Below are positions 13,665-33,288 of a stretch of 64,000 bases of DNA, piece by piece (within the stretch, counting starts at the first letter, position 1; every line of letters starts with the position of its first letter). The notes below the pieces were generated by a model. That model did no database searches. It worked only from the letters and a program-made list of their open reading frames with translations, and was not told where the DNA came from. The translations under genes were made by a program, and so were the position numbers. The DNA comes from Planctomycetaceae bacterium (GTDB lineage Bacteria; Planctomycetota; Phycisphaerae; Phycisphaerales; SM1A02): positions 2,300-66,299 of the forward strand of contig NYSY01000137.1 of assembly GCA_002683215.1 (NCBI GenBank). Direction: 5' to 3'.

Positions 13665-14423
13665 TCACGGGTCCCGGTTCATCGCGTTCGCCTGAGCGCG
13701 GACCGGTATCAGGGTCATGCCGCCCGCGGCTTCGACCCGCAGTTCGTAGGACTCGCCCGGTCGCATCGGCTTGTAGACCGCCTCGCCCTGCGCGACCCGG
13801 ATCCCCGCTTCCTCGGCGGCCTCCGGATCCGAGGCGAGGGTCCAGAATCGTTTCCAGATCGCCTGTTCGAAGCGTGCCTCTTCGGAGCCCGCGTATCCGT
13901 CGGGAACGCCGCCGGGCGTGTCGATCGGAATGCCCTCGCGGGGTGGCATCCGGTCGGAATAGATCCTGCGGAGCAGGACCAGCGTTCGATCCCGGAAGGG
14001 ATCGTCCGCGGACGCCACCGATTCCGCGGGGAACCTCGCGGTCCAGGCATCGACGTAGATCACGTCGCCGGGCACGTCCAGCTCGCGGCGGGCGATTTCC
14101 CGGCCTTCGTCGTCGAGTTCGATGAAAAGGAGGCTCGTCCTCGGGCCTTCTCCACCCAGATCCTCGGATCGTTCGACCACCTCCAACCGGGCGATCCGTC
14201 GGTCGCGTCCCAGCCGGGCGATCGCGGCGTCCCGACGGGCGATTTCGGCCACCATTCGGGTCTCGATCGCCGTGATCTCGGCTCGGAGCCGGCGTTCGCG
14301 GTCCGTGGTCCACCAGGTCAATCCGGCGATCAGCATGCCACCGACGATGACCACGATGACGGTGATCCGGACCAAGGCCCCGATCAGGGCCGATGTGAGG
14401 GGGATGTGCGGGGATGACGCCAT
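13665..14423 (-). CDS. Single-pass membrane-anchored protein, unknown function
   Basis: Start moved to MASSPHIPLTSALIGALVRITVIVVIVGGMLIAGLTWW (TM helix), followed by a coiled-coil-like RRLRAEITAIETRMVAEIARR and then a globular domain. No family recognised. Confidence 0.6.
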   Translation of the reverse strand: MASSPHIPLTSALIGALVRITVIVVIVGGMLIAGLTWWTTDRERRLRAEITAIETRMVAEIARRDAAIARLGRDRRIARLEVVERSEDLGGEGPRTSLLFIELDDEGREIARRELDVPGDVIYVDAWTARFPAESVASADDPFRDRTLVLLRRIYSDRMPPREGIPIDTPGGVPDGYAGSEEARFEQAIWKRFWTLASDPEAAEEAGIRVAQGEAVYKPMRPGESYELRVEAAGGMTLIPVRAQANAMNRDP

Positions 14424-14484
14424 GACCTTTCTTCTATCGGCCGTAAAGCTCCAGTCACCCGCAGAAAGTGCCGATATCGGACGC

Positions 14485-17208
14485 ATGGAATGGTTGTTTT
14501 CCTCGGTGCGTCGAGCGGGCCTCCTCGGCTTCCTGACGCTGCTCGCGATGTCGTCCGCGCCGACGACTGCTGTCGCGTCGCCCGCCGGCGGCTCGGACCC
14601 ACCCGCGGTCACGCGGCGTCTGGTCCACCGTTTCGATTTCGAGGACATCCAGAAGGCCGACTGGTCCCACGTCTTCGAGCAGGCGCACGGGCTTCCGCCC
14701 CAGGACCGCTTCTTCACCGCCAACGTCGACGACCTTCGCCGATCCGACGGCGACTGGAGCCTCCGGATCGACATCCTGGGCGGCTCGGTCTCCTACCGCA
14801 CCCGTCCCGAAGTCGTGCTGCCGGCTTCGGTCGATTCCCGGTTCCACTTCGCGGGCGACGTCCGGACCACCGGACTCGACAACGCCGCGGCCCGCCTTGA
14901 AGTCCGCCTCGTCGACGGCGATCTCCTCGATCGGTCGCACGCCGCGGGCATGCCGGACGCCGTGGAATCGGCGACGATCGAAACCTTCGTCTCCGAACCG
15001 GTCCGCACCGCCGATGCCTGGACGAATCTGGTCGTCGACGTCGACACGTCGAGCCCCGACTGTCGCGCGGTGGGCGAGGATCTTCGATTCGTGGTGGCGA
15101 TGCAGGTCGTGCAGCCCGGATTCGACGAGGAATCGGCGGGCCGTCGCCCCACGGGACGCGAGCCGCGCATCGAGGACGTGAGCGGCACGGTCTGGTTCGA
15201 TGGTCTCGCCATCTGGCAGCTCCCCTGGATCGACTTCGGAACCGTCGGTGATGCCGGAATCGTGCGCCTGCCGGCGCCGGTCGACCTTCGAATCGCGATC
15301 GACGATCCGATCGACCCGGTTCCCGCGGTGACGTTGGAGATCCGCGATCTCGACGACACCCTCGTGGAGCGACGTTCCATCCGAGCGCTTTCGAGCGGTC
15401 GGCCGGTGGTGGCCTCGGTCCGGCCGGATCGGCCGGGCTGGTATCGGGCGAGGCTCGTGGTCGAGGGTGGTGGTGGCGTGGCCACCGAACGAACCTCGAA
15501 GTTCCTCGTCCTTCCGGACGCCCGCGAACGTCGCCGCAACGGTTCCCCGCGGCTCGGGTACGCGATGTCCGACTGGCGGGTGGGTGACCTTTCCAGACTC
15601 GCCGACGTCCTCGACGAACTGGATCCCGGCATCGTCGAGTTCTCGATCTGGCCGGTCGGCAACGACGAGATCGGAAGCACGGACGCGATCAACTCGCTCA
15701 AGTCGACCCTCGCCCGACAACGATCGAACTACCGCGAGCCGGTGCTCGCGATCGACCGGATTCATGGCGGGCTCGCCGATGCGGCGCGGATCGCGCCGAC
15801 CGAGGTTCGAGCCGCGGTGCTCGGCGACGACTCGCTCGTCCGGGATTCCCTCGAGTCCTGGTTCGATCGTTTCGGGACCATCGTCGACCGTTGGCGGATC
15901 CCCGGAAGCGTTCGATCCGGCCGTGAACCCGTGGCGTTTCGCGAACTCATGCAGGTCCTCATCGCCGATCCCGTGCTCTCGGTCGACCGGACGCCCGGGG
16001 GATGGTCACCGCCGTGGGCCGACGAACCCTACTTGCTCGCGACCGACGATCTGTCCGCGTCGGCCATGACGGATCTCTTCGACGATGACGGTGCGATGAC
16101 GGGTTCGGTTCGAATCGCGCCGCCGCCGGATGCGTGGCGTCCACGTGATCGCGTCGATGCGATGGCCCGCCGACTTCTGACCGCGTGGCGGGGCGGCGCG
16201 GGCCAGTTGATCCTGCCGTGGAATGCGAACCGCGGGCCCGATCCCGCGATGCTCGCGTCGACCGGACTGGCACCGGCCATCGCGGGGCGTCGATTCGGCG
16301 GCGTGGTTCCGACGACTTCCACCGCGAACTGCTGGATCGCGACCGACGATCGCACCGCGGAGTTCGTGGTCTGGTCCGACCGAGTGGACCAGGTGGAGGC
16401 CCTGCGACTTCCGGTCGGCGTCGACCGCGTCGAACTGGTCGATCTCGACGGCGTCGTCCGGCCGGTGATGACGACCGGCGGCATGCTCGACCTCGAAGTG
16501 GGATCCACCCCGATCCGGGTGCGCGGGATCTCCCGACTCACCGCGAACTTCATCGCCGGCCTGCAATTCGACACGTCGGGTGTCGACCTTGCCGCCGGTC
16601 CCGGGACCGTCGAACTGATCGTCGAGAATCCCGGAGACGTCGCGATGGAAGGGCGTCTCACCATCGAGGCGCCACGTGGTTGGTCGATCGAGCCACGCGA
16701 GCCGAGAATCCGCGCCGCGGCGGGCGGATCAGCCCGGATACCGCTGGAGATCCGTTGGACGACTCCGCCGGTTCCCGGTGAGATCCGACTTCCGATCCGC
16801 ATCGCGGTGGAATCCGAGGAACGGATCGGCGTCGAGGTCGAGGTGCCGCTCCGGATTCGGAACGACGTGCTGGAGATCCGGACCGACTGGGCGCTGACGA
16901 CTTCGGCGGTGGATGGGCGCCAGGGCGTCGTGGTCAGTGCGGAGGTGATCAACCACGGCGACCGCCCGCTCGACCTGCAGCTCGAGGCGGTGGCGTGGCA
17001 TACCGGTCGGGAACGTCGTCCGATCTCCTCGCTGGGGCCCGGCGAACGCGCGGTCCGACGGTTCCATTTCAAGCGAAGTCTCGAACGACTGGCGGGAACC
17101 GACATCCGCGTCGTGATCACGGAGATCGGTGGGCCACTCGGCGTGACGACGTTGATTCCGGTCAGTGGCGGCAGCCGGGGGCTCGACACCGCACTGGTGG
17201 ACGAATGA
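14485..17208 (+). CDS. Large secreted multi-domain protein (CBM-like jelly roll, TIM-barrel-like middle, Ig/NEW3-like C-terminal repeats), unknown function
   Basis: Start moved to MEWLFSSVRRAGLLGFLTLLAMSSAPTTAVASP (signal peptide) within ORF 14122..17208. C-terminal NPGDVAMEGRLTIEAPRGWSIEP and VINHGDRPLDLQLEA resemble CARDB/NEW3-type Ig repeats. Confidence 0.7.
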   Translation: MEWLFSSVRRAGLLGFLTLLAMSSAPTTAVASPAGGSDPPAVTRRLVHRFDFEDIQKADWSHVFEQAHGLPPQDRFFTANVDDLRRSDGDWSLRIDILGGSVSYRTRPEVVLPASVDSRFHFAGDVRTTGLDNAAARLEVRLVDGDLLDRSHAAGMPDAVESATIETFVSEPVRTADAWTNLVVDVDTSSPDCRAVGEDLRFVVAMQVVQPGFDEESAGRRPTGREPRIEDVSGTVWFDGLAIWQLPWIDFGTVGDAGIVRLPAPVDLRIAIDDPIDPVPAVTLEIRDLDDTLVERRSIRALSSGRPVVASVRPDRPGWYRARLVVEGGGGVATERTSKFLVLPDARERRRNGSPRLGYAMSDWRVGDLSRLADVLDELDPGIVEFSIWPVGNDEIGSTDAINSLKSTLARQRSNYREPVLAIDRIHGGLADAARIAPTEVRAAVLGDDSLVRDSLESWFDRFGTIVDRWRIPGSVRSGREPVAFRELMQVLIADPVLSVDRTPGGWSPPWADEPYLLATDDLSASAMTDLFDDDGAMTGSVRIAPPPDAWRPRDRVDAMARRLLTAWRGGAGQLILPWNANRGPDPAMLASTGLAPAIAGRRFGGVVPTTSTANCWIATDDRTAEFVVWSDRVDQVEALRLPVGVDRVELVDLDGVVRPVMTTGGMLDLEVGSTPIRVRGISRLTANFIAGLQFDTSGVDLAAGPGTVELIVENPGDVAMEGRLTIEAPRGWSIEPREPRIRAAAGGSARIPLEIRWTTPPVPGEIRLPIRIAVESEERIGVEVEVPLRIRNDVLEIRTDWALTTSAVDGRQGVVVSAEVINHGDRPLDLQLEAVAWHTGRERRPISSLGPGERAVRRFHFKRSLERLAGTDIRVVITEIGGPLGVTTLIPVSGGSRGLDTALVDE

Positions 17209-17264: not shown

Positions 17265-17930
17265 TCAGCTTCCCACCCGCAGGACGTCCCGTCCGCCGGG
17301 AACCCGCCCCGCGATCGATGCCGCGGTGATCGATCGGATCACCCAGTCACCGTCGCGCCGTTCCCACTCGAAGATCCAGCGGGAGGGTACGTATCCGAGA
17401 CTGGAACTGGTCCGGGTGAGACAGGCGAGTTCGACCACCGCCGCCCCGCCGCCGGTGGTCACCGCATCGAGCAGGGTGATGGAGTTGCGTTCGATCCGGT
17501 GGACGCCACCGAGGGCGTCCAGCATCGATCGCAGGTCTTCGACCGGAAAGCCGGGATTCTCGATTCTGCCCGGATGCAGGGTCGCCTCCGGATCCAGTCG
17601 AGCGACGAGGAGGTCGACGCGGCCGGACTCGGCATCCTCGACGAATCGTCGCGTCGCCGACGCGGCGGCCTCCGCGGGCGTCTCCACCACGAGGCCGACG
17701 CCGAGCGCGAGCAGGGCGAGTCCCGCGAGGATGCCGGCCACCAGCAGCGGCCGTCGGTCGTCGCGCTGGATCGCGATCCAGCCGATCGTCGCCGCGATCA
17801 GCAGCGTGACGATCGAGAAGGGCCATGGATTCTCGAGGATCCACTGGGAGAAGAGACTGTCGCGGACGTCGTCGGGCACGATGGCATTCCCGTGATTCAA
17901 AGGGGGTCGGACCGGACCGCTCCGAGCCAA
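17265..17930 (-). CDS. Two-TM membrane protein with NTF2/SnoaL-like C-terminal domain
   Basis: 221-aa ORF (TTG start; an in-frame GTG at 17879 is an alternative). TM segments WPFSIVTLLIAATIGWIAI and LLVAGILAGLALLALGVGLVV. C-terminus WIFEWERRDGDWVI is typical of NTF2-like folds. Confidence 0.6.
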   Translation of the reverse strand: MARSGPVRPPLNHGNAIVPDDVRDSLFSQWILENPWPFSIVTLLIAATIGWIAIQRDDRRPLLVAGILAGLALLALGVGLVVETPAEAAASATRRFVEDAESGRVDLLVARLDPEATLHPGRIENPGFPVEDLRSMLDALGGVHRIERNSITLLDAVTTGGGAAVVELACLTRTSSSLGYVPSRWIFEWERRDGDWVIRSITAASIAGRVPGGRDVLRVGS

Positions 17931-17962: not shown

Positions 17963-20900
17963 ATGATCCCATCCGCCGAATCGAAGCATGCCACGGTCGG
18001 GGCGCAGTCCGCCGACACCCTGGCGGCCAACCTCGAGGCGCTCGGTTCCCTGAACCACGTCGCCCGCGTCGCCATTCAATCGGCCGAGGACCGCGAGATC
18101 GAGATCGAGATCGCCGAGGACGGTCGGCTCACCGGGACGTGGGACGGACGTCGGCTCGCCAGTGCGCATCGGCCCGCCGCGGAGACGACGAGGCTGGTGG
18201 AGGAGGTCGACCTTTCGGAACAGGCGTGCATCGCGATCATCGGGTTCGGCCTCGGCGATCACGTCGAGGCCTTCGTCCGTCGCCTGCGGGGGACCGGGGT
18301 GGTGGTGGTGCTGGAGACCGACGCGGCCCTGCTTCGCGCGGTGTTCTCACGACTCGATCTCTCCGAGTGGCTGGCCGACGAGCGCCTGATCCTGCGGGTC
18401 GACCCCGACGATTCGGTCGGACTCGCCGCGAGCCTCGCCGGAGCGCACTCCCTGATGATGATCGGTACGCGGATCGTCGAACATCCGCCGAGTCGCCCCC
18501 GCATCGGTGCCGCCACCGGTCGCTTTTCGCGCACCCTGGTCGATCTCGCCGCGACCGCCCGGACCTCGACGACCACGCTTCTGGGGCAGAGCGGCACGAC
18601 GATCGAGAACCAGTTGTCGAATCTCGACCACTATGCGATCGGCGCCGGCATCGAGGACCTCGCCGGGATCGCCCGGGGTCGGCTCGGCGTGGTGGTCAGC
18701 GCGGGGCCGAGCCTTCGTCGAAACATCTCGGTCCTCGCCCGTCCCGGCGTCCGGGATCGATGCGCGATCGTCGCGACCCAGACCACGCTGCGGCCGCTGC
18801 TCGACGCCGGGATTGCGCCGCACTTCGTGACGGCCCTCGACTATCACGTCATCTCCAGCCGGTTCTACGAGGGACTGGATCCGGCGTCCCTCGAGGACAC
18901 GGAACTCGTCATCGACTCCCGGGTGAACCGGGCGGTGACCGAAGCCTGGCCCGGCCGGATCCGCTGCATCCCGTCACTCCAGTTGGACGAGTTCCTCGGG
19001 CCGCTCGCCCGAGGGGGCGAGCGGCTGCAGGCGTCGACGACCGTCGCCCATCTCGCCTACACCTTCGCGCGGCATCTCGGTTGCGATCCGGTGGCGCTGA
19101 TCGGGCAGGATCTCGGATTCACCGACGGGCTGTACTACGCGCCGGGGACGGCGATCCACGAGGTCTGGCTCCCCGAACTGAATTCGTTCAACACCGTCGA
19201 GACCATGGAGTGGGAGCGGATCGCCCGACATCGAAACCACCTCTCCGAACGGCACGACGTGAACGGCCGACGCATCTTCACCGACGCCCAGATGCTGAAC
19301 TACCTGCAGTCCTTCGAGGTCCGCTTCGCGGAGGACGTCCGGAACGGACTCCGAATCGTGGATGCGACCGAGGGCGGTGTGAGGAAGCGGAACACCGAGG
19401 TTCGCTCGCTCGCGGAGACCATCGAGGCACATGCGGGCATCCGGACCTCGGCGATCGACTTTCCGCGGTCGACTCGCTCCGAGGCGGGGGATCGTCAGGC
19501 GGTGCTCGAGCGTCTCGGGCTGGTCCGGACCGAGCTGGACGAGATCGCCGAGGCGAGCGACCGCACGCTCGAGATTCTCGAACGGATGCTCGAGGTCCAG
19601 TCCGACGCATCCGAGATGGATCGTCTCTTCCAACGACTCGAGGCGCCTCGGGCGACGGTCAAGCGGCATGCGGCCAGTCGTCGGCTCACCGATTGGTTCA
19701 ATCAGCTCGCGACCTTCCAGCGGCTGCGGGCCGATCGACGGATTCGACTCGCCGACGACCTCCAGCCGATCGATCGCCAGCGGGCCGAACTCGAGCGGGA
19801 TGTCGTGAACGTCCGGTGGACGCGGGACGCCTGCCGGATGCTGGGCGATCTCCTTCAGTCAACGCATCGCCTGTTGACCGATGGCGTGTTCGAATCGAGG
19901 CTGGGGGATTCGGCGGGCATGGCGGAGGCGATGGGTGTGGTCGCCTCCCCGGCCGCCGTGCCGAAGGTCGTCGCCGTGGTGGCCATCGATCCGGATCGCG
20001 GGGGCCTCGGCGTGGATCGCGGGCTCGCCGCGAACCTCGGTGGCAGGTCGATCCTGCAGCGGACGCTCGAACGAATCGACTCGGCGATCGGCATCTCGGC
20101 CATCGCGCTCCTCGTACCGGACGGATTCGACGTCGAATCCGCGGTCGACCGCACCCGGCTCGATCATCCGATCCACGTGCATGAATGCGGTGCCCGGGTC
20201 TTCGGCCCCGAGCATGAAGCCATTCAGGTCGCCCGCGCCGTCGCACCCACGTCCTGGCGCGGCGGCATTCACGGCATGACGTCGTTCGACGAAGTCTTCG
20301 CGCCGGGCCCGACCGCCGCGGTGCTTGCGGACCTCGACGCCGATGCGGCACTGCTGGTCGGGGCGGACTGGCCCTTCGTCTCGGTCGATGAACCGGGTGG
20401 ACTCAACGAGATTCTCGAGCGGCATCGGAAACGTCCGAACGCGACCTGGGTCTTCGGGCAGGGGCCTCCGGGACGGACCGCGATGGTGCTTGGTCGTGCG
20501 GCCGTCGAGATCATGCGACGGAATCGATGCCGCGTGGGGACCATCGGCTACCAGCTCGCCTACCGCCCCGAGATGCCGGAGGGTGATCCGATCGTCGGCG
20601 ATCGCTGTGTCCACGCCGAGCCGGCGGTCCGCAGCGCGATCGCCCGCTTCGCGGTGGACACGCCACGAGAGATCAAGCGGCTCGAACGGGCGATCGGACC
20701 GATGCTGCTCGGCGATGCCTCGCCGGATTCGAGGGAGATCGCGATCCGGCTCGAGCACCGGGCGCTCAGCGGGCCGCTGGCGACGCCCCGATTCCTGCGG
20801 GTCGAATTGAACACCGGCCGGACCGGCCGACGGATCGGGACGCCCGAGGCGATCGAGGTGGAGCGGGCGCCGATGGAGGAATCGATGTTCCGGCGGATCG

Positions 20901-21640
20901 TCGAACCACTCGCGGACGCGGGTGACACGGTGCTCTTCCTCGACGGTGCCGGTGATCCGGTGCTGCATCCCCGATTCGACGACTTCATCGAGATCGCGAT
21001 GGATGCCGGCGTGCGGGTGGTCTCGATCCGAACGGATCTCGCGGGTGATGCCAGCGTGGTCGATCGGCTCCTCGCCACCCGGGTCGGGGTCGTGGAGATC
21101 GACCTCGACGCGGAGACGGGGGAAACCTACCGGCTGATGCACGGTGCGGATCGATTCGAGGAGGTCATCGGAAATGTCGAGCGATTGATCGCCGGCCGAC
21201 GCCGGCTCGACGGCGGCACGCCTGCGGCACTTCCCACGGAGCTCGCGTTCGCGTTGCCATGGATCGTCCCCCGGTTCGAACGACGCGTGGAGAACATCGG
21301 TGAGCTTCCGGAGTTCTTCGAGCGATGGCGTCGCCGGCTCGGGGTCGCGCTGATCGACGGCCCCGCCCGGTGGCCGTCCGCCACCGGCACCGAGGTCGAC
21401 CCCCTCAGCCCGACCTGGCCACCGCCCCGCCACGACGAGATGGTGAATTCGGTGAGAATGACCGTGCTCGCCGACGGATCGGTGCCGATCGCGGAACTGG
21501 ATCTCGCGGGATCGACCAGCGTCGGTCGCGTGGGCGAACGATCGCTTCAGGAGCTCTGGCAGGAGCTGGTCCAACGTCGACGTGATCGATTCGAAGGCCG
21601 CCGCGACGAACCCGCCACCCTCTCACCTCTCCGTCCCTGA
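17963..21640 (+). CDS. Tri-modular protein: Maf/DUF115 (MptE-like) glycosyltransferase, coiled-coil linker, nucleotidyltransferase-like module, Cys-less radical-SAM/SPASM-like module
   Basis: Start moved to MIPSAESKH in ORF 17825..21640 (1225 aa). DUF115 core GVVVSAGPSLRRN...CAIVATQTTLRPLLDAGIAPHFVTALDYH...LIGQDLGF (aa about 215-490). GT-A/NTP-transferase-like KVVAVVAIDPDRGG...GGRSILQRTLERI (aa about 665-855). rSAM-like scaffold LRVELNTGRTGRR...VLFLDGAGDPVLHP...VVSIRTDL...VVEIDLDAETGETYRLMHG...FEEVIGNVERLI...MTVLADGSVPIAEL...GRVGERSLQELW (aa about 940-1210). Confidence 0.8.
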   Translation: MIPSAESKHATVGAQSADTLAANLEALGSLNHVARVAIQSAEDREIEIEIAEDGRLTGTWDGRRLASAHRPAAETTRLVEEVDLSEQACIAIIGFGLGDHVEAFVRRLRGTGVVVVLETDAALLRAVFSRLDLSEWLADERLILRVDPDDSVGLAASLAGAHSLMMIGTRIVEHPPSRPRIGAATGRFSRTLVDLAATARTSTTTLLGQSGTTIENQLSNLDHYAIGAGIEDLAGIARGRLGVVVSAGPSLRRNISVLARPGVRDRCAIVATQTTLRPLLDAGIAPHFVTALDYHVISSRFYEGLDPASLEDTELVIDSRVNRAVTEAWPGRIRCIPSLQLDEFLGPLARGGERLQASTTVAHLAYTFARHLGCDPVALIGQDLGFTDGLYYAPGTAIHEVWLPELNSFNTVETMEWERIARHRNHLSERHDVNGRRIFTDAQMLNYLQSFEVRFAEDVRNGLRIVDATEGGVRKRNTEVRSLAETIEAHAGIRTSAIDFPRSTRSEAGDRQAVLERLGLVRTELDEIAEASDRTLEILERMLEVQSDASEMDRLFQRLEAPRATVKRHAASRRLTDWFNQLATFQRLRADRRIRLADDLQPIDRQRAELERDVVNVRWTRDACRMLGDLLQSTHRLLTDGVFESRLGDSAGMAEAMGVVASPAAVPKVVAVVAIDPDRGGLGVDRGLAANLGGRSILQRTLERIDSAIGISAIALLVPDGFDVESAVDRTRLDHPIHVHECGARVFGPEHEAIQVARAVAPTSWRGGIHGMTSFDEVFAPGPTAAVLADLDADAALLVGADWPFVSVDEPGGLNEILERHRKRPNATWVFGQGPPGRTAMVLGRAAVEIMRRNRCRVGTIGYQLAYRPEMPEGDPIVGDRCVHAEPAVRSAIARFAVDTPREIKRLERAIGPMLLGDASPDSREIAIRLEHRALSGPLATPRFLRVELNTGRTGRRIGTPEAIEVERAPMEESMFRRIVEPLADAGDTVLFLDGAGDPVLHPRFDDFIEIAMDAGVRVVSIRTDLAGDASVVDRLLATRVGVVEIDLDAETGETYRLMHGADRFEEVIGNVERLIAGRRRLDGGTPAALPTELAFALPWIVPRFERRVENIGELPEFFERWRRRLGVALIDGPARWPSATGTEVDPLSPTWPPPRHDEMVNSVRMTVLADGSVPIAELDLAGSTSVGRVGERSLQELWQELVQRRRDRFEGRRDEPATLSPLRP

Positions 21641-21659: not shown

Positions 21660-22418
21660 ATGAAACAGAACACGACCGAGATCGAATCCTCCGCCGCCAC
21701 CGCGGTGGTGATCGGCCGCGCGGGAAGCAAGGGACTTCCACGCAAGCATGTTCGGCTCGTCGACGGCGTACCGATGATCGCGCGAAGCGTCGGTCACGCG
21801 CTCGCGGCCCGCCGGGTGGGGCGGATCCTGTGTTCCACCGACGGTGAGGCGATCGCGAGTGCCGCGGCCTCCGTCGGTGCCGAAGTGTTCCTGCGACCCG
21901 CGGCCCTCGCGGACGATCACGCCACCGTCGATGCGGGCGTGCGGCACGCGATCGAGACGTCCGGCGACGACGCGGAAGTGGTCGTCATCCTCTACGGAAG
22001 CATCCCCATCCGGCCCGACGACCTGATCGACCGTGCCGTCGCACGACTGGTGGACACCGGTGCGGACAGCGTCCAGAGCTACTCGCCGGTCGGAAAGCAC
22101 CATCCGTTCTGGACCTGCCGACTCGACGATGATGGTCGCATCGCCGCCTGGCAGGAGAACGACGTCTTCCGCCGCCAGGACCTGCCGCCGGCCTTCATCC
22201 CCGACGGCGGCGTCATCGCGGTTCGACGCGAGTCCCTCTTTCAGGTCGATCCGGAGCGCCCGCACGCGTTTCTCGGCAGGGACCGCCGGGGCGTTCTCAA
22301 TGAAATGGGAACGGTCATCGACGTGGACGACGAGATCGATCTGCTGGTCGCCGAGGCGATTCTCGAGCGACGTCGGCGTGCTCACGTCGCGTCGGTTCAC
22401 AGCGGGGTCGGTCCGTGA
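21660..22418 (+). CDS. neuA: Acylneuraminate (nonulosonate) cytidylyltransferase
   Basis: Start moved to MKQNTTEIE. AVVIGRAGSKGLPRKHVRLVDGVPMI is the CMP-NulO synthetase P-loop-like motif. 252 aa. Confidence 0.85.
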   Translation: MKQNTTEIESSAATAVVIGRAGSKGLPRKHVRLVDGVPMIARSVGHALAARRVGRILCSTDGEAIASAAASVGAEVFLRPAALADDHATVDAGVRHAIETSGDDAEVVVILYGSIPIRPDDLIDRAVARLVDTGADSVQSYSPVGKHHPFWTCRLDDDGRIAAWQENDVFRRQDLPPAFIPDGGVIAVRRESLFQVDPERPHAFLGRDRRGVLNEMGTVIDVDDEIDLLVAEAILERRRRAHVASVHSGVGP

Positions 22419-23455
22419 CGAGCGCCGATGTCCGCATCGGGACGCGACCGCTCGATGCGGATCAACCGACCTGCGTCATCGCCGAGATCGGGGTCAATCA
22501 CGACGGACGTCTCGATCGAGCGCTCGAACTCGTGGACGCCGCGGCCGGCGCCGGCGCGGATGCGGTGAAATTCCAGTGGTTCGAGGCCGACCGGCTGGTG
22601 GGGGACCCGGACGCCATCGCGGACTATCAGCGGCGGGCGAACGTGGCGAATCAACAGGAGCTGCTTCGAGGGCTGGAACTCGACCGGGACGCGATGGCGC
22701 GGCTCGTCGACGCAGCGCACCGCCGGGGGCTGGGTGCCGTGGTCACGGTCTTCAACGAGGCGTTGATTCCGGTCGCGGCGGACCTTCCGTGGGACGCCTG
22801 GAAGACGGCGTCTCCGGATCTGGTGCATCGTCCGCTCCTGGACCGACTCGCCGGCGACGGACGTCCGATGCTCGTTTCCACCGGTGCCTCGGAGTTCGCG
22901 GAGGTCACGCGAGCGCACGAATGGCTGGGAGACGCCCCGGTGGTGTTCCTGCACTGCGTCAGCGCCTACCCGACGCCGGAGTCATCGGCGGGACTCGGGG
23001 CGATCGGGAGCATCGCGGCGGCGACCGGCCGTCCGACGGGATACAGCGACCACACCGCCGAGGTCACCACCGGCGGATTGGCGGTCGCCGCCGGGGCGGT
23101 GGTGCTCGAGAAGCATCTGACCTGGAATCGAAACGCGGTCGGCCCCGACCATGCGGCGAGTCTCGATCCTGCCGGGCTGGCCGAGTACGTCGATTTCGTG
23201 CGACGAGCCCGCGGCGCGGTCGGTGACGGGATGAAACGATCGAATCCGATCGAAGCGGATGTCCGCCGGGTGGCCCGGCAGTCCCTGCGGGCGGCGCGTT
23301 CCCTGCCGTCCGGGACCCGGCTCTCGGCCACCGACATCGCGGTGAAGCGTCCCGGTGACGGGATCGAACCATGGCGGTTGGAGGAGATCCTCGGACGGGA
23401 ACTCCGGGTCGCCCTCGAACCCGATGCCCCGATTCGCGAAGGAGACCTCGGATGA
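22415..23455 (+). CDS. neuB: N-acetylneuraminate-type (nonulosonic acid) synthase with C-terminal SAF domain
   Basis: 346 aa. CVIAEIGVNHDGRLDRALELVDAAAGAGADAVKFQ, later YSDHT. SAF-like tail IAVKRPGDGIEPW...IREGDL. The GTG start overlaps the neuA stop by 4 nt. Confidence 0.9.
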   Translation: MTSADVRIGTRPLDADQPTCVIAEIGVNHDGRLDRALELVDAAAGAGADAVKFQWFEADRLVGDPDAIADYQRRANVANQQELLRGLELDRDAMARLVDAAHRRGLGAVVTVFNEALIPVAADLPWDAWKTASPDLVHRPLLDRLAGDGRPMLVSTGASEFAEVTRAHEWLGDAPVVFLHCVSAYPTPESSAGLGAIGSIAAATGRPTGYSDHTAEVTTGGLAVAAGAVVLEKHLTWNRNAVGPDHAASLDPAGLAEYVDFVRRARGAVGDGMKRSNPIEADVRRVARQSLRAARSLPSGTRLSATDIAVKRPGDGIEPWRLEEILGRELRVALEPDAPIREGDLG

Positions 23456-24564
23456 GTCGTCGTGTCGCGGTGGTCACCGGTTCCCGCGCAGACTTCGGTC
23501 TGTTGCGATCGACGATGGAGGCGATCTCGGTCACGCCCGGACTCGAGCTGCAGATCATCGCGGCCGGTTCGCATCTGCTTCCACCCGACGAGACGATCAA
23601 CGAGGTCCGCGAGCACTTCCACGTCGACGCGGTCGTGGAGATGCAGCACGCCGGGCGCATCGGGCGGGCGGCGGACGCGACCGCCACGGGCCGTGGAATC
23701 GTGGGATTCACCGCGGCGTTCGAGCGGTTGGATCCGGACGTCGTCCTGGTCCTCGGGGATCGGATCGAGGCCTTCGCGGCCGCGGCGAGCGCGGGCATCG
23801 GTGGAAGACGGGTGGCGCACGTGCACGGCGGCGACCGTGCGGAAGGCGTGGCGGACGAATCGATGCGGCACGCGATCACCAAGTTGTCGCACCTGCACTT
23901 TCCCGCGACGCCGACGAGTGGCGAACGGGTCCGACTTCTCGGCGAGCCGGCGGATTCCGTGCACGTCGTGGGAAGCCCCGCCGCGGACGGCGTCGACGCC
24001 ATGCGGCCGCTGGACGAGGAGATGTTCGATCGACTGGGCCGACCCCGCGTGGCGATTCTCCATCACGGTTCCGGCCTGACCGAGGCGTCCGAACGGGTGT
24101 GGATCGAGACGGCGATCGAAGCGAGCCACCGCCGCGGGCCGGTCGTGGTCATGCGTTCCAATCACGATCCGGGCAGCGATGTCGTGGAGCGGGCCGGGGT
24201 GGCGGCCGCGGATCGGCTCGGCGTCGTCCGGGCGGGTCACCTTCCCCGCGAGGCGTTCATCGGCCTGCTCCGCCGCGTGGAGGTGCTGGTGGGGAATTCC
24301 AGCGCAGGCCTCATCGAAGCGCCCGTGGTCGGATGTCCGACCGTGAATCTCGGGCCCCGTCAGGCGGGGCGGGAGCGCCCCGGGTCGGTGATCGACGTGG
24401 AACGAGCCGACGTCGAGGTGATCGTCGATGCCATCGGGGCCGCGGTCCGCCGTGACGGACCGATCGAGCATCCGTACGGCGAGGGCGGTACCGGCCGACG
24501 GATCGCCGAGGTCCTCGTGGAACTCGTCGATTCGGGGATTCCGCGGAAGCGGAACGCGTTCTGA
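23452..24564 (+). CDS. neuC: UDP-N-acetylglucosamine 2-epimerase (hydrolysing type)
   Basis: Start moved to MSRRVAVVTGSRADFGLL (ATGA overlap with the neuB stop). VAHVHGGDRAEGVADESMRHAITKLSHLHF matches the NeuC/LegG-type HxHGG motif. Confidence 0.85.
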   Translation: MSRRVAVVTGSRADFGLLRSTMEAISVTPGLELQIIAAGSHLLPPDETINEVREHFHVDAVVEMQHAGRIGRAADATATGRGIVGFTAAFERLDPDVVLVLGDRIEAFAAAASAGIGGRRVAHVHGGDRAEGVADESMRHAITKLSHLHFPATPTSGERVRLLGEPADSVHVVGSPAADGVDAMRPLDEEMFDRLGRPRVAILHHGSGLTEASERVWIETAIEASHRRGPVVVMRSNHDPGSDVVERAGVAAADRLGVVRAGHLPREAFIGLLRRVEVLVGNSSAGLIEAPVVGCPTVNLGPRQAGRERPGSVIDVERADVEVIVDAIGAAVRRDGPIEHPYGEGGTGRRIAEVLVELVDSGIPRKRNAF

Positions 24565-24631
24565 ATCGATCGGGTCGGGGAAAGCCTGTCGATGATTCCG
24601 CCGGCGGTGATTCGAGGTGATCATTCTGAAC

Positions 24632-25285
24632 ATGAGCGATCAGAAGCAGACCGGATCCCGCGGCGCCGACGTCCGACTTCCCCTGCGCATCGACACCCCG
24701 GACGACTGGGGGACGAGGGCGCTTCAGGAGACCTGCGCGCTCCTGAACGACCACGCCCACCTCGAGAAGAAGGCGGCGCAGAACGCTCTGGAACTTCTGC
24801 ATCGCTGGCCGGAGCCGACGCCACCGGACAACTGGGTGGTGGCGATGACGGCGGTGGCGCGTGACGAGGTGGAACACCTTGCGCTCGTGGTTCGATTGCT
24901 GTCGCGGCGTGGCGGCCGTCTGACCAAGTCGCATTCCAATCGTTACGCGGCCGCCCTCCGCGGCCTCGTTCGTGGTGGTGGTCTCGAGGCGACGATCGAC
25001 CGCCTGATGATCTCGGCGTTGATCGAGGCCCGATCCTGCGAGCGATTCGAGATTCTCGCCCGGATCGCGGAGGACGAGCCGCTCGCGAAGATCTATCGCG
25101 GTCTCTGGGCCAGCGAGCGGGGACACTACCTGTCCTTCATCGATCTCGCGCGTCAGGTCGCGGCCCTCGAAGGCTCGGCGATGGTCGAGCACGTGGAATC
25201 GCGGTGGGACGAGATGCTCGACGCGGAGGCGGCGGTCATCCAGAAGCAGGCCCCCGGCCCCCGGATGCATGCCTGGGTCGAATGA
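24632..25285 (+). CDS. miaE: tRNA-(ms2io6A37)-hydroxylase MiaE (non-heme di-iron)
   Basis: LNDHAHLEKKAAQNAL, ARDEVEHL, ALIEARSCERF and ASERGHYLSF form the ferritin-like ExxH pairs of MiaE. The ATG at 24632 has GAGG upstream; the ORF-track GTG at 24617 is an alternative. Confidence 0.8.
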   Translation: MSDQKQTGSRGADVRLPLRIDTPDDWGTRALQETCALLNDHAHLEKKAAQNALELLHRWPEPTPPDNWVVAMTAVARDEVEHLALVVRLLSRRGGRLTKSHSNRYAAALRGLVRGGGLEATIDRLMISALIEARSCERFEILARIAEDEPLAKIYRGLWASERGHYLSFIDLARQVAALEGSAMVEHVESRWDEMLDAEAAVIQKQAPGPRMHAWVE

Positions 25286-25485
25286 AGGCGTTCTCGGTCC
25301 TGCGAACCCCGGTTCCATCGGTCCCAGACCGAACAGGCCGATCGAACCGGCATCCATCGCATCGCTTCGGGCCCCTCGGGTGAATGAAGCCCGCTCCGGG
25401 CCCGATGCCTGAGGGACGGGACTGGGCCAGGCCCATCCGATTCGAGGGGATTCCGGGCGCTTCGTCGTCCACGGAGGGTGTGACC

Positions 25486-26361
25486 ATGGACCATGGACAG
25501 GTCGGACAAGAGGGCGGCATTGCGCTGGACGCGGTTCGCAACATCAGCCACATCGCCACCCTTCCCGAAGTCACGGTGAAGATCATCGAACTGGTGGAAG
25601 ATCCCGGTTCGAGCGCCCGAGACCTCCATGCGATGATCTCGACCGATCCGGCGCTCACCGCCCGAATGCTCAAGGTGGTGAATTCGGCGTTCTACGGGCT
25701 GCCCCGGCAGATCGCCTCGATCAACCGCGCCGTCTCCCTGCTCGGTCTCAACGCCGTCAAGAACATCGCGGTGGCCGCGAGTCTCGCGAAGCTCTTTCGC
25801 GGTGGCGACATCGGTCCCGACTTCAACGCACACGAGCTCTGGCTGCACTCCTGCGTGACCGCCAGCACGGCTCGGATCATCGCGCAGGGCAATCGCCGGA
25901 ACGCGGTCGACGAGGCCTTTCTCGCCGGCCTGGTTCACGACGTCGGCATCCTCGTCGAACTCCAGCACGATCGGGCCCGGTTCGCGGAGGCGATCGCCCT
26001 CGCGGCCGCTGGCCGTGACCTGCGGGAATGCGAGCGAGAGGTCCTCGGGGAGGACCACGAAGCGTTCGGTTCGGCGCTCTGTGAACACTGGAAATTCCCG
26101 TCGAGCCTCGTCTGGGTCGCGGGTCACCACCACGATCCGGCCTCGGTGCCCCAGGCGAATTGCGATCTTCCGATGATCGTGCACGTGGCGGACCGGATCG
26201 CGGCGGAGATCGCCGGCGGGTTCTCGTTGGACCTCCAGGACGGCGGAATCTCGCCGGAGGCCCTCGACCATCTGGGAATCGATCAGGTCACCCTCGACGG
26301 GATCCGGGCCGAGGCGAGCATCGCGGCCCGCGATGGTGGAGAACTGCTCGCGGCGGCCTGA
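25486..26361 (+). CDS. HDOD-domain signalling protein
   Basis: Start moved to MDHGQVGQ (GGAGGG upstream). LPEVTVKIIELVEDPGSSARDLHAMISTDPALTARMLKVVNSAFYGLPRQIASINRAVSLLGLNAVKNIA is a textbook HDOD N-terminus. Confidence 0.85.
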   Translation: MDHGQVGQEGGIALDAVRNISHIATLPEVTVKIIELVEDPGSSARDLHAMISTDPALTARMLKVVNSAFYGLPRQIASINRAVSLLGLNAVKNIAVAASLAKLFRGGDIGPDFNAHELWLHSCVTASTARIIAQGNRRNAVDEAFLAGLVHDVGILVELQHDRARFAEAIALAAAGRDLRECEREVLGEDHEAFGSALCEHWKFPSSLVWVAGHHHDPASVPQANCDLPMIVHVADRIAAEIAGGFSLDLQDGGISPEALDHLGIDQVTLDGIRAEASIAARDGGELLAAA

Positions 26362-26410
26362 ATCGGCGGTTGATTCGCGTTCCTCCCTCGACGGGGGATA
26401 CCATCAGGGC

Positions 26411-27124
26411 ATGTCCGCGTATCGCGTGAACTTCGGAAAGCCGGTCGCACTGTTCCCGCTCCCGGGAGTCAGCCTGCTTCCACACGGCGCCCAGCCGCTC
26501 CACATCTTCGAGCCGCGATATCGCCAGATGATCGAAAACTGCCTCGCGTCGGGAAACGGTGACCTCGACCGCGCAGATCCGATCGCGATGGCGGTCGTCG
26601 ACGGGCGACGTGGCGCGGAGGTCCAGGAGGTCTCGCTTCGTGAAGCGGTGTGCGTGGGGCGGATCGCCCGGGTCGAGCGGCTCTCGAGCGGTCGGTTCAA
26701 CATCCTTCTCCACGGATTGTGCCGGGCACGGATCGAAGAGCTTGATCCGCCGGTCGACGGTCGGCTCCACCTCCGGGCCTGGCTTCGGCCCATCGAACCG
26801 GAGGCGAACGAAGCGCCGCCGATGCCCGAGGCACGGAGGCTCATCCGGAGTCTCCTCGGCAACGGGCGCCTGCGTCGGCTCGCTGCGGCGGGCATGGCCG
26901 TCGAGTGGCTCGATCGAGACGATCTTCCGACCAGCGTGGTGCTCGATCTGATCGGGTTCGCGGTGGTGAAGGACGAGGCGATCCGATACCGCCTCCTCGA
27001 GCAGGGGGACTCCCGGCGACGGGCGGAGACGGTCGCGGGTGAGTTGCAGATGCTCGACCGCCTCGTTTCGCAGGTCGATCGGCAGAACTTCGCCGAGTGG
27101 CCCAAGGGCCTGAGCTGGAACTGA
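26411..27124 (+). CDS. LON substrate-binding (LonN) domain-only protein
   Basis: Start moved to MSAYRVNFGKPVALFPLPGVSLLPHGAQPLHIFEPRYRQMIENCL. No AAA or protease module follows. Confidence 0.8.
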   Translation: MSAYRVNFGKPVALFPLPGVSLLPHGAQPLHIFEPRYRQMIENCLASGNGDLDRADPIAMAVVDGRRGAEVQEVSLREAVCVGRIARVERLSSGRFNILLHGLCRARIEELDPPVDGRLHLRAWLRPIEPEANEAPPMPEARRLIRSLLGNGRLRRLAAAGMAVEWLDRDDLPTSVVLDLIGFAVVKDEAIRYRLLEQGDSRRRAETVAGELQMLDRLVSQVDRQNFAEWPKGLSWN

Positions 27125-28359: not shown

Positions 28360-29514
28360 TCAGGGCTCCAGCATCGCGCCGGTCGATGCGCGGACCACGC
28401 GGGTCGCGGGGCGACGCCCGAATCGCGCGGCGAATGCTTCGACGATCACGTCGCGATTGGCCTCCAGGGTCGGGGTGGACACCAGCACCAGGGCACTGCC
28501 GCCGAACCCGCCGCCGGTCATGCGGGCCCCGAAGCAGCCGGCATCCACCCGCCGCTCGGCGATCTCCACGATGTGATCGATTTCCGGAATCGAGACTTCG
28601 AAGCCGTCCCGCAGCGAACGATGCCCTTCGAAGAGGAGCCGACCGGCCCCCGCGAAGTCCCCGTTCTCCAGGGCCGTCACCATCGCGTCGACGCGGGCGT
28701 TCTCCTCGACGACGTGGAAGGCCCTTCGTCGATCCGTCGTCTCGAGCGTCGCCGCAGCGACGTCTTCGCGCGTCGCATCCCGCAGTGATCCACCAATCGC
28801 CGCTTCGGCTCGCTCGCACGCCGCGCGTCGCTCCGCATAACCGCCGTCGCGAAGTCGATGGGTGACGCCGCTGTCCACCAGCAGGATGACCGCGTGGTCC
28901 TCGGGCGGCATCGGCACCGGACGCCAGGTCACCGAACGACAGTCGATTCGCAGGGCGTTTCCGGCGCGGCCCGCAGCGGAAACCAGCATGTCCATGATCC
29001 CGCACGGGGTCCCCACGAATTCATGTTCGGCCCGCATGGCGAGACGGGCGAGCGTCTTCGGATCCGAGGCACCGTCGGTGAACCCGGCCCAGGCGGTGGC
29101 GAACGCGACTTCGATCGCGGCGCTCGAGGAGAGGCCGCCGCCGGACGGAACGTCACTGGTGACCAGGGCCCGGATCGGCGCGTCGGTTCCACCCGCGGCC
29201 TGGAGGACCCCGAGCAGGTGATTGGCGAATCGACGGGACGGGTCGGTCTCCGGGTGTCGGGGCGGTGGTCCGGGGTGGCTCGTCTCCGCGTCGAGATCGG
29301 GCGCGAGGAAGACGGTCCGGCCGTCCTCCGCCGGCCCGAGGGCGAGCGCAGCGCGGGCATCGATCGCGAACGGGAGCACCAGTCCGCCGGTGTAGTCGAC
29401 GTGCTCGCCGATCAGGTTCACGCGGCCGGGGGCGGACGCGACGATCGCCGGTGGGACGCCGAAGCGCCGGGTGAACGCCGCCCGAGCCCGAGCGGCCGCG
29501 GAGGTCTCGTTCAT
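28360..29514 (-). CDS. galK: Galactokinase
   Basis: 384 aa. GRVNLIGEHVDYTGG (galactokinase signature) and the GHMP motif PSGGGLSSSAA. Confidence 0.95.
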   Translation of the reverse strand: MNETSAAARARAAFTRRFGVPPAIVASAPGRVNLIGEHVDYTGGLVLPFAIDARAALALGPAEDGRTVFLAPDLDAETSHPGPPPRHPETDPSRRFANHLLGVLQAAGGTDAPIRALVTSDVPSGGGLSSSAAIEVAFATAWAGFTDGASDPKTLARLAMRAEHEFVGTPCGIMDMLVSAAGRAGNALRIDCRSVTWRPVPMPPEDHAVILLVDSGVTHRLRDGGYAERRAACERAEAAIGGSLRDATREDVAAATLETTDRRRAFHVVEENARVDAMVTALENGDFAGAGRLLFEGHRSLRDGFEVSIPEIDHIVEIAERRVDAGCFGARMTGGGFGGSALVLVSTPTLEANRDVIVEAFAARFGRRPATRVVRASTGAMLEP

Positions 29515-30929
29515 TCGTCGAATTCCGATTCGGCGTCGAGGTCGACACCTCGATTTCGTTCATCGAGCCGGGTCTCCAGTTCGACGAGTACGTCACGCAG
29601 CCGGTCCCGGCTCCAGCGATCGCGGCGATCGAACGATGCGTTGACCGCTCGATGCCCCTCGACCCGCCGCTCGATGTCGGCACCGAGTCCGGCGAAGGGT
29701 CGGACCAGACGATCGAATTCACGACGCCGCTCCAGCACCGCGTCGAGCAGTGCGATCTCGTCCGCGATCGCATCGATGTCGTCTTCGATCGTGGGGGTTG
29801 CGCCGAGCTCCGCGAGGGGCACCGCATCGGAGACGTGCCGGTATCGGGACGCAAGCGATCGGTCCGCCCGTGTCGCCGCGGCCACGCCCAGTCGGTTCAG
29901 ACGTTCCGCGGTCGCGGCGACCAGGTTCTCGACGTCCTCGCGTCCCCGCTCGTCCAGTTCGTCGGCGGTCAGAATCTCCCGGATCAGCCGCGCCAGCCGA
30001 AGATCCTCGACGAACAACGCGGGATGCGCGAGTTCGTGGTGGCTGCGGACCATCTCGAGGTGGGCGAGCGGCGGCACGCGGAGCCCGAGGGCCCCGATCA
30101 TCTCGGCGTTGATGTTCCGACGTGGAATCTCGGTGGCGACGAGTGCTTCCTCGTACGCGGCGAGTTCCCGATCGGCTCGATCCCGCTCCACGCCGGTCAG
30201 CAACCGACGCCACTCGGGCCCGAGCTCGATCATCGATGCGGCCCGGATCCGTTCGATCGCTTCACTCCGCGACCATCGCGCGACGAGGGCGGCGTCGAGG
30301 TCGGCCTCCCACTCATCGAGCACGGGCAGCACGCCCTCGAGAATCTCCGGGTCCACCGCGACGGTGGTGACGAGCTCCAGCGGCTCGATGGAGGTACCGG
30401 GGAGTCGATCCGGCAGACCGAGCAGTTCGCGTCTTCGCCGCCGGCGTTCCCGAAGCGTCGAGGCCGCCGGATCGATCTTGGACGCCTCGTTCCGATCGGC
30501 GGCGAGCAGCCGGCCGAACAACGCCTCGTCCGCGATGTCGGCGGCGCGAAACGCCTCTCCCCTCGCCTGAAGGAGAAGGAGCAGCTCCGGGGTGTGGCGG
30601 GTGCGCACGTCGCCCTGCTGTCGATCGATCGAGAAGCAGACCGGCCATCGCTCGCGCACGGTCTGGACCGGTCCCTCCTGGATCGGATGCCAGGCGAGTT
30701 CGTAGGCGGCGAGGGCGTCGACGATCGCCACCTCGTCCTCGATCTCCAGGTCCCGGGCGATGGCGCGGATGGATGCCGGATCGATCGGGGACGGTTCGTA
30801 GATCCTGCGGAGCGCCTGTTCGCGCAGTGCCTGCTCCGCCGCGGAGATCTGGGCTTCCGCGGGTTCGACCACGATCGAGATGATCGAAAGGAGGGTGCCG
30901 AGGAGGACCGTCGCGTCGCGGGTTCGCAT
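29511..30929 (-). CDS. Secreted all-helical Glu/Arg/Leu/Ala-rich protein, unknown function
   Basis: 472 aa. Signal-like MRTRDATVLLGTLLSIISIVVEPAEA. The stop overlaps the galK start (ATGA). No family recognised. Confidence 0.65.
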   Translation of the reverse strand: MRTRDATVLLGTLLSIISIVVEPAEAQISAAEQALREQALRRIYEPSPIDPASIRAIARDLEIEDEVAIVDALAAYELAWHPIQEGPVQTVRERWPVCFSIDRQQGDVRTRHTPELLLLLQARGEAFRAADIADEALFGRLLAADRNEASKIDPAASTLRERRRRRRELLGLPDRLPGTSIEPLELVTTVAVDPEILEGVLPVLDEWEADLDAALVARWSRSEAIERIRAASMIELGPEWRRLLTGVERDRADRELAAYEEALVATEIPRRNINAEMIGALGLRVPPLAHLEMVRSHHELAHPALFVEDLRLARLIREILTADELDERGREDVENLVAATAERLNRLGVAAATRADRSLASRYRHVSDAVPLAELGATPTIEDDIDAIADEIALLDAVLERRREFDRLVRPFAGLGADIERRVEGHRAVNASFDRRDRWSRDRLRDVLVELETRLDERNRGVDLDAESEFDE

Positions 30930-33262: not shown

Positions 33263-33288
33263 CGGTTTCCACCGAAAGGACCCGGGAC

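Follow-up and report, generated by a model that had tools for sequence, protein, structure and literature searches.

A Maf glycosyltransferase fused to a cluster-less radical-SAM-like partner protein beside neuA, neuB and neuC in a marine Phycisphaerales bacterium

We analysed a window of 64,000 nucleotides (nt; 67% G+C), the whole stretch of DNA considered here, from contig NYSY01000137.1 of Planctomycetaceae bacterium GCA_002683215.1, a marine member of the Phycisphaerales. The gene in question is a single open reading frame (ORF) for a protein of 1225 amino acids (aa), in which a Maf glycosyltransferase is joined to a second, radical-SAM-like protein, and it is followed on the same strand by neuA-, neuB- and neuC-like genes (Table 1). 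The ORF translates without an internal stop, its coordinates taking in the stop codon; GGAGG lies 12–16 nt 5′ of the ATG at 17963, and base composition at third codon positions (GC3) is coding-like across the entire frame. A longer version starting at the ATG at 17825 is unlikely, as it would run into the divergent gene upstream, and the nearest homologs are likewise exactly 1225 aa long. The original prediction, made from the letters alone, had the ORF end 20 nt before neuA-neuB-neuC, and these genes do lie directly downstream, although the gap between the stop codon (21638–21640) and the neuA ATG at 21660 is 19 nt. The neuA and neuB frames overlap by GTGA and those of neuB and neuC by ATGA, and the fused gene and neuA, neuB and neuC look like one translationally coupled operon.

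Table 1. Coordinates of the fused gene, its predicted domains and the genes discussed with it (window positions unless a locus is named)
Feature	Position	Strand	Evidence
Whole fused gene, Maf + spiro-SPASM-like partner	17963..21640	+	ORF, homologs, full-length AlphaFold2 model
Maf N-terminal domain, residues 1-214	17963..18604	+	within 701-column 5MU5 match; PF20157 in some homologs
Maf catalytic MptE-like/DUF115 domain, residues 215-490	18605..19432	+	PF01973, PseD, invariant motifs
Maf C-terminal helical domain, residues ~509-640	19487..19882	+	five long AlphaFold2 helices; 5MU5 match
Fusion linker, residues ~648-661	19904..19945	+	pLDDT <50; standalone partners begin just past linker
Partner nucleotidyltransferase-fold domain, residues ~668-935	19964..20767	+	Foldseek; PF12804 in relatives
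Cluster-less radical-SAM (β/α)6 barrel, residues ~940-1132	20780..21358	+	TIGR04321, PF04055, Foldseek, AlphaFold2
Degenerate twitch/half-SPASM tail, residues ~1155-1210	21425..21592	+	AlphaFold2 hairpin + helix; BtrN alignment
neuA-like CMP-nonulosonate synthetase	21660..22418	+	PF02348 E=4e-14; PseF 7.5e-25
neuB-like nonulosonate synthase	22415..23455	+	PF03102 E=4.5e-59 + SAF domain
neuC, hydrolysing UDP-GlcNAc 2-epimerase	23452..24564	+	TIGR03568 282.8 bits
Divergent 204-aa membrane protein, GTG start, 83 nt upstream of the Maf gene	17268..17879	-	ORF; SnoaL_2 E=4.5e-4 (weak)
DUF6263 genes	L005 4263-5159; L006 6227-7270; L014 6281-7306; L015 6193-7167	- (all)	PF19777

A homology search of 5.8 billion proteins with the fused protein returned 1268 matches, more than 120 of them full-length. 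The best 120 share 40–97% identity with the window protein over 82–100% of the query and come from many independent assemblies held by ENA, NCBI, JGI and Logan; 119 are 1136–1372 aa long and the remaining one (P0116, 1025 aa) is labelled partial at NCBI. Those with an organism name belong to Planctomycetota/Phycisphaerae, and public annotation calls them only ‘DUF115 domain-containing protein’ or ‘MptE-like protein’. A scan of GTDB with the single protein found five close loci, in metagenome-assembled genomes of Phycisphaerales/Phycisphaerae, and mean column identity in the fused-homolog alignments is 48–49%. Because full-length homologs of the same architecture recur in independent assemblies, an assembly artefact is excluded and the ORF is the genuine one-frame fusion that had been proposed from the sequence. 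The architecture had also been thought undescribed, which holds insofar as we found no such Maf in the literature, and nothing on the pairing or fusion of a pseudo-radical-SAM protein with a Maf glycosyltransferase, but it is common in public data under uninformative annotation.

Maf enzymes are the main bacterial route for attaching sialic-acid-like sugars to proteins, and we know of none that has been studied in Planctomycetota, nor of work on protein sialylation in marine Phycisphaerae. Residues 1–645 of the window protein are predicted to be a complete three-domain Maf, with the fold and PF01973 core of the Mafs of Magnetospirillum magneticum (5MU5), Aeromonas (Maf1) and Shewanella (Maf-1/Maf-2). 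The DUF115/MptE-like core that was expected at residues about 215–490 is matched by PF01973 (MptE-like; residues 215–388, E=1.1e-29, 103.8 bits against a cut-off of 34.6) and by NF050051 (PseD; residues 242–478, E=1.6e-9). A full-length AlphaFold2 model of residues 19–1218, built from a 57-sequence alignment, reached a mean predicted local distance difference test score (pLDDT) of 89.1 and a predicted template-modelling score (pTM) of 0.83, and its best match in the Protein Data Bank (PDB) by Foldseek is the M. magneticum Maf (E=2.6e-16), over 701 aligned columns of a 632-residue target that take in all three domains of the Maf fold. The motifs SAGPSL, ALDYH, TVAH and GQDLGF are invariant in 57/57 sequences, as are D275, D365 and D370 (A2 numbering), and some homologs carry the Maf N-terminal domain PF20157. 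Residues ~509–640, which had been read as a 150-aa coiled-coil following the Maf core, form five long helices in the model; the 5MU5 match covers them, and they are therefore the Maf’s own C-terminal helical domain. With these features the half is probably active as a nonulosonic-acid protein O-glycosyltransferase.

The remainder of the protein is what sets it apart from known Mafs: a module of ~560 residues, fused or paired with the Maf, that combines a nucleotidyltransferase fold with a radical-SAM barrel devoid of cluster ligands. An AlphaFold2 model of residues 641–1225 scored pLDDT 89.8 and pTM 0.91, so the two domains are predicted to pack rigidly against each other. Both folds had been called from the letters, as a GT-A/cytidylyltransferase-like module and a radical-SAM-like scaffold, and both were recovered by Foldseek in two sets of matches, one comprising DesII (1.8e-10), SuiB, BlsE, BtrN, SkfB, MoaA, PqqE, anSME and viperin-like enzymes, the other the Leptospira cytidylyltransferase 6OEW, IspD, KdsB, GlmU and MobA, with TM scores of ~0.55–0.68 for the nucleotidyltransferases when normalised on the target. 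PDB searches by sequence with the single halves gave nothing useful; it took the family profile to reach BtrN and IspD. Residues ~668–935 thus share the fold of MobA, IspD, KdsB and NeuA and retain a GxDxP-type motif as GADWP; unlike those enzymes, it is matched by neither Pfam nor NCBIfam models in the window protein (residues 641–935), and the glycine-rich, phosphate-binding GxGxR loop is replaced and reads DPDRGGLG. The domain is not a duplicate of the adjacent NeuA, to which it shows no detectable similarity. Residues ~944–1132 form a six-fold β/α repeat in the AlphaFold2 secondary structure, followed by a β-hairpin and a helix (E525–528, E533–535, E546–550 and H555–570 in the model of residues 641–1225). 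TIGR04321 (‘spiro-SPASM’) is the top-scoring family for the isolated barrel domain (E=1.3e-15), which is also matched by TIGR04317 (E=4.5e-9) and by PF04055 (Radical_SAM; residues 972–1076, E=2.4e-5 for the isolated domain, 22–25 bits against a gathering cut-off of 29.5). The hairpin and helix are the SPASM-like tail of the original prediction, but they amount to a degenerate twitch or half-SPASM and not to a full SPASM domain (PF13186, E=0.21).

Conservation in this half is concentrated at the former ligand-motif positions. WRGG, DE and GxDWP are invariant in the nucleotidyltransferase-fold domain, and residues that remain invariant at 27–40% identity include, in C-half numbering, R118, W125, R126, G127, D136, E137, F191, G197, D235, R255, E308, L309 and G357. 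The GGE motif of the barrel reads GAGDP in the window, GxGDP being the conserved form, and the β4 Thr is strongly conserved. By these alignments, the former ligand-motif positions are under purifying selection.

By similarity the two C-terminal domains form a single unit with kinship to TIGR04321, a family that is itself uncharacterised. When 1.84 billion cluster representatives were searched exhaustively by HMMER with the C-half, 1278 proteins were returned at E≤1e-3, 269 of them at E≤1e-30, and the best 150 include many standalone proteins of 540–590 aa that cover the whole C-half at ~30–35% identity and begin at its residue ~27–30, just past the fusion linker. All the modules of the three-module fusion originally proposed are present, but the last two make up one pre-existing protein, so the ORF is a fusion of two proteins. 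Names given to the standalone proteins include ‘radical SAM/SPASM domain-containing protein [Poriferisphaera sp. WC338]’ and ‘SPASM domain-containing protein [Phycisphaeraceae bacterium]’; JGI calls one member ‘spiro-SPASM protein’, and MobA- or SpsF-like names also occur. TIGR04321 was matched by all 32 members that we sampled (best E=6.8e-46), SPASM by 25/32, Radical_SAM by 24/32 and NTP_transf_3 (PF12804) by 12/32 (best E=3.6e-7), and these matches support both domain assignments at the sequence level.

TIGR04321 is also the best hidden Markov model (HMM) for the C-half as a whole, and the profile match starts at ~228 of 510, which would fit an N-terminal domain of a kind other than radical-SAM with the barrel after it. 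Unlike TIGR04321, named for spirochetes, the window protein is planctomycetal, stays below threshold (53–57 bits against a curated cut-off of 250) and lacks the SPASM/twitch cysteines; on HMM scores and the one JGI label, the family may have a link to spirochetes. Our literature searches on spiro-SPASM and TIGR04321 found nothing relevant, and a paper on Leptospira nonulosonic acids and one on a Tannerella transferase contain nothing on this family. The TIGR04347 ‘pseudo-SAM/SPASM protein’ family likewise has a radical-SAM/SPASM scaffold that lacks the cluster motif, and 4/32 relatives match it weakly (best E=1.1e-6); unlike the present family it has no link to Maf or glycosylation, and it is a separate family (E=0.3 for the window protein). 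With such entries already catalogued, radical-SAM scaffolds that lack the cluster are in themselves a familiar idea.

Where the two proteins are encoded separately, they are encoded side by side. A Maf gene (628–672 aa) lies directly upstream of the standalone gene, on the same strand, in 5/5 split contexts (L005, L006, L007/8, L014 and L015), with spacings from a 4-nt overlap to 117 nt, and neuA and neuC directly follow the pair in two of the five. Because of this adjacency in every split context, the window ORF is a fusion of a conserved Maf–partner gene pair. At L014, SASA genes (sialate O-acetylesterase-like, PF03629; 740–3037 and 13021–14583) flank the pair, a hint of O-acetylated sialic-acid metabolism around the module. 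In a neighbour-joining tree of 151 C-halves, which is crude and to be read for coarse statements only, 70 of 71 fused proteins form one clade, and its sister is a group of 10 standalone proteins that keep their cysteines. The other fused protein, P0205 (1224 aa), nests inside a large standalone clade and is the only fused one to have kept all five C-terminal cysteines, a placement that indicates an independent and probably recent fusion. Since P0205 lies apart from the major fused clade, the Maf and partner genes appear to have fused at least twice.

The cysteines of the family record two separate losses. The original prediction had noted the absence of cysteine from the last ~340 residues and of the CxxxCxxC site, and this is borne out: cysteines in the fused protein occur only at 89, 267, 335, 374, 624, 742, 856 and 882, the last 343 residues are cysteine-free, and the radical-SAM fold confirmed by AlphaFold2 and Foldseek thus has no cysteine after residue 882. 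From composition alone a cysteine-free stretch of that length has a probability of ~0.1, and the weight of the evidence therefore lies in motif positions rather than in the cysteine count. We aligned 351 C-halves (182 standalone, 169 fused) to the family profile, and none has CX3CX2C in the first barrel loop; in 166/182 standalone proteins this loop has no cysteine whatever. The former cluster loop is replaced by a conserved E-L-x-T-x-R and then an invariant Arg, and reads ELNTGRTGRRIGT in the window. A cysteine at 950 (ELCTGR), present in 51% of fused versus 2% of standalone proteins, was rejected as a relic of CX3CX2C, being specific to the fused clade and upstream of where the BtrN cysteines align. 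At the C-terminal end, standalone partners carry five cysteines with 63–91% occupancy, at least four being present in 157/182 (86%), whereas all five are absent from 159/169 fused proteins; at the equivalent positions the window copy shows T, E, A and gaps, with no terminal CxxC. The family profile aligns with the twitch domain of BtrN (E=1.5e-4), placing partner cysteines on Cys187, Cys232 and Cys235, which are ligands of its auxiliary [4Fe-4S] cluster. For the twitch tail, cysteine occupancy is 88–91% among standalone partners against 1–4% among fused ones.

The radical cluster site is thus absent from all 351 members, and only an auxiliary, twitch-type cysteine set was lost specifically in the fused clade, probably on its stem. 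The module resembles the twitch/SPASM enzymes BtrN (4M7T), DesII (8HZV), BlsE (7VOB), SuiB (5V1T) and anSME (4K39) in its (β/α)6 barrel and β-hairpin–helix tail, and its standalone relatives resemble BtrN in the cysteines just described; it differs from them in that the family lacks CX3CX2C, the window copy is left without any Fe-S ligand, GGE has become GxGD and the barrel is fused to a nucleotidyltransferase fold. Because the family has no CX3CX2C and the fused clade has no auxiliary cysteines, the C-half is not expected to be capable of radical chemistry. We found nothing in the literature on a family that has shed its Fe-S sites in such stages.

The genes downstream bear on the sugar that the Maf half would use. 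NeuC scores above the equivalog cut-off of TIGR03568 (235.9 bits); the best model for NeuB is that of N-acetylneuraminic acid (Neu5Ac) synthase, TIGR03569, at 281.5 bits with a cut-off of 399.65, and the best NCBIfam matches of NeuA are PseF (7.5e-25) and KdsB, all under their cut-offs. NeuC, NeuB and NeuA constitute a three-step route to CMP-Neu5Ac, and because the operon contains no dehydratase, aminotransferase or acetyltransferase genes, CMP-Neu5Ac would be its simplest product. Linkage of neuA, neuB and neuC to the fused gene recurs in L001 and L003, where the relatives are 44% and 62% identical to the window protein, and gene order is kept: a ~900-aa unannotated gene, a ~200-aa gene on the opposite strand, the fused gene, neuA, neuB, neuC, (MiaE), an HDOD gene and a Lon N-terminal gene. 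Other Mafs resemble this one in their linkage to CMP-nonulosonate biosynthesis genes and in having a partner, GlfM or a tetratricopeptide repeat (TPR) domain, downstream or fused.

On balance we consider it somewhat probable that the ORF is the single-chain form of a two-protein nonulosonic-acid protein glycosyltransferase, in which the accessory half works by binding, preferably on the donor side. The Maf half would transfer a nonulosonic acid from CMP-nonulosonate, most simply CMP-Neu5Ac, with the donor supplied by the co-transcribed neuA, neuB and neuC. Residues ~668–1225 would be the Maf’s dedicated accessory protein, the counterpart of the separate downstream gene of sister Phycisphaerae, and would dock on the Maf as a binding subunit that performs no radical chemistry. 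It would most likely recognise a nucleotide-containing ligand (CMP-nonulosonate, CTP or a SAM-like molecule) and, by binding it, control or assist donor use; the original prediction had already suggested a possible repurposing for substrate or nucleotide-sugar binding. The only internal segment of the full-length model with pLDDT below 50 is the 14-residue linker (~648–661), and this together with the pTM of 0.83 speaks for two halves packed in a fixed arrangement. What we say of pockets is read from motif positions: a binding role is suggested because the old ligand-motif positions (GxGDP, the β4 Thr, E-L-x-T-x-R, GxDWP and WRGG) are conserved. We prefer the donor side because conservation falls on small-molecule motif positions, with many invariant Arg, Asp and Glu residues, because the best structural neighbours (DesII, BlsE and BtrN) act on sugars or nucleotide-sugars, and because viperin-like enzymes and MoaA among the neighbours bind CTP or GTP in the barrel.

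Several observations weigh against this interpretation. Maf enzymes bind CMP-nonulosonate themselves, and a second donor-binding module is not obviously needed. With DPDRGGLG in place of GxGxR, nucleotide binding by the nucleotidyltransferase-fold domain is uncertain, and with NeuA and NeuB under their equivalog cut-offs the sugar may not be Neu5Ac. The fusion history is taken from a crude tree. To our knowledge flagellin is the substrate of every Maf characterised, and at least Phycisphaera mikurensis has flagella; the original prediction had suggested a search for flagellin, pilin or S-layer targets, but unlike flagellar Maf loci the window has no flagellar gene near the ORF, none of these target genes nor any other flagellar gene occurs in the 64 kb, and the related loci have no flagellar, pilin or S-layer gene or other candidate acceptor within ±10 kb.

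The main alternative to a donor-side role, which we regard as possible though rather unlikely, is that the C-half, or the separate partner, is an acceptor-specificity adaptor that would bind the target protein and present it to the Maf by way of the ancestral peptide cleft of a maturase, as a functional analogue of GlfM or of the TPR domain of Maf-1/FlmG. Maf accessory factors encoded just downstream of the enzyme or fused to it, such as GlfM and the TPR domain of Maf-1, have been described, the factor binds flagellin, and interconversion of fused and split forms has been discussed (Unay et al., bioRxiv 10.1101/2023.12.03.569772). The present gene order, with the partner directly downstream of the Maf, and its alternation between fused and split states follow the same pattern; Maf-2 needs its partner to bind flagellin (bioRxiv 10.1101/2023.12.03.569772), and the Foldseek neighbours of the C-half include the peptide-binding maturases SuiB, SkfB, CteB (5WHY), anSME and PqqE. 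The analogy would be functional only, since a nucleotidyltransferase fold with a radical-SAM barrel is unrelated to the four-helix GlfM or to TPR. Against an adaptor stand the best structural neighbours, DesII, BlsE and BtrN, whose substrates are sugars or nucleotide-sugars, and the conservation at former small-molecule motifs, where the invariant Arg, Asp and Glu suit a pocket for a small ligand better than a protein-binding surface; the Maf half moreover has a helical C-terminal domain of its own, and the window and related loci offer no acceptor candidate.

We think it improbable that the ORF is instead a bifunctional enzyme whose C-terminal domain or domains catalyse nucleotidyl- or phospho-transfer, or a polar reaction in the barrel, and so tailor the sugar or the glycoprotein. 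GxDWP does occupy the place where GT-A/nucleotidyltransferase folds bind metal, DE and WRGG are invariant along with several Arg, relatives still match NTP_transf_3, and flagellin nonulosonic acids are often heavily derivatised; but the phosphate-binding GxGxR loop is replaced, both in the translation and in the IspD alignment, the window domain has no HMM match, a canonical NeuA is encoded next door, and no radical-SAM barrel without its cluster is known to catalyse a reaction. That the C-half is decaying ballast, or that separate genes were joined by mis-assembly, is very improbable: all Fe-S ligands are gone and split versions exist, but full-length fused homologs down to 40% identity in independent assemblies, the many invariant residues and the column identity given above, two folds modelled at high confidence and coding-like GC3 over the whole ORF leave this reading effectively refuted by the conservation data.

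Around the operon, the divergent gene upstream of the Maf encodes a protein that begins with a LENPWP motif region and has two hydrophobic helices and a weakly matched NTF2/SnoaL-like domain; it is fast-evolving and unannotated, with only 23 database homologs. BLASTP places homologs at the same position in the fused loci L001 and L003 and the split loci L005 and L006; in the split loci L014 and L015 a divergent 201-aa gene occupies this position, and is matched by position alone, BLASTP having covered L001, L003, L005 and L006. Over these four split loci the gene encodes 200–209 aa, and its product is a candidate third component of the module, perhaps anchored in the membrane. In 4/5 split loci the ~200-aa gene adjoins one whose secreted product contains DUF6263 (PF19777), with 37% identity between the copies of L005 and L006; no DUF6263 gene is adjacent in the window, and the protein could be a candidate acceptor or a mere syntenic neighbour.

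Further upstream in the window, at 14122–17208 (+), lies an ORF of ~900–1028 aa with no Pfam or NCBIfam match. Its real start is probably near 14485, and a likely signal peptide starts at MEWLFSSVRRAGLLGFLTLLAMSSAP; the first ~120 codons are Arg/Ser-rich, look over-extended and overlap a minus-strand ORF at 13665–14774. L001 and L003 have a ~900–950-aa gene that lacks a Pfam match at the equivalent position, the likeness being by position only. We considered the 1028-aa ORF as an acceptor and rejected it on its lack of a family match, a composition that is not Ser/Thr-rich and its over-extended-looking N-terminus. On the 3′ side of neuC follow genes for a MiaE tRNA hydroxylase (24617–25285), an HDOD/HD-domain protein (25384–26361) and a Lon N-terminal-domain protein (26333–27124), all on the forward strand; their order, kept in L001 and L003, is probably lineage synteny and not part of the system. 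Elsewhere in the window, a GH18 chitinase with an N-terminal CBM2 domain (459–2423, +; E=6e-86) suggests chitin use by this marine Phycisphaerales bacterium. Two LemA-family genes (31885–32517 and 33157–33852, +) lie ~640 nt apart, and in the corresponding part of L001 a gene for an M48 peptidase comes after a LemA gene. Long minus-strand ORFs at 2515–4914, 34994–38149 and 29511–30929 (799, 1051 and 472 aa) have coding-like GC3 and no Pfam match.

Substrate choice by Mafs is only lately being resolved, through TPR domains and GlfM, to which the present locus contributes a third accessory module of unrelated structure. The Rosetta-stone evidence that the module works with the Maf is unusually clean, combining conserved adjacency with at least two apparently independent fusions, and for the spiro-SPASM-like family, so far uncharacterised, it is the first clue to a function. 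The family is at present annotated wrongly or too sparsely, under the labels “MptE-like pterin kinase”, “DUF115” or “radical SAM/SPASM domain protein”. The series of Fe-S losses, with the radical cluster gone throughout and the auxiliary cysteines kept in free-standing proteins and lost on fusion, offers a model for how a radical-SAM scaffold becomes a pseudo-enzyme. We tentatively suggest, while holding it doubtful, that the spiro-SPASM-like proteins constitute a general, hitherto unrecognised class of obligate cofactors on which a subset of Maf sialyltransferases depends, possibly including the spirochete TIGR04321 proteins, in which the scaffold has been turned into a reader of nucleotide-sugar or acceptor, and the auxiliary Fe-S cluster, perhaps redox-sensing or structural, is kept when free-standing and lost when fused. 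If true, this would give a function to an orphan family and define a third mechanistic type of Maf besides the TPR-fused and the GlfM-dependent ones. For the organism, the locus suggests that marine Phycisphaerae sialylate proteins.

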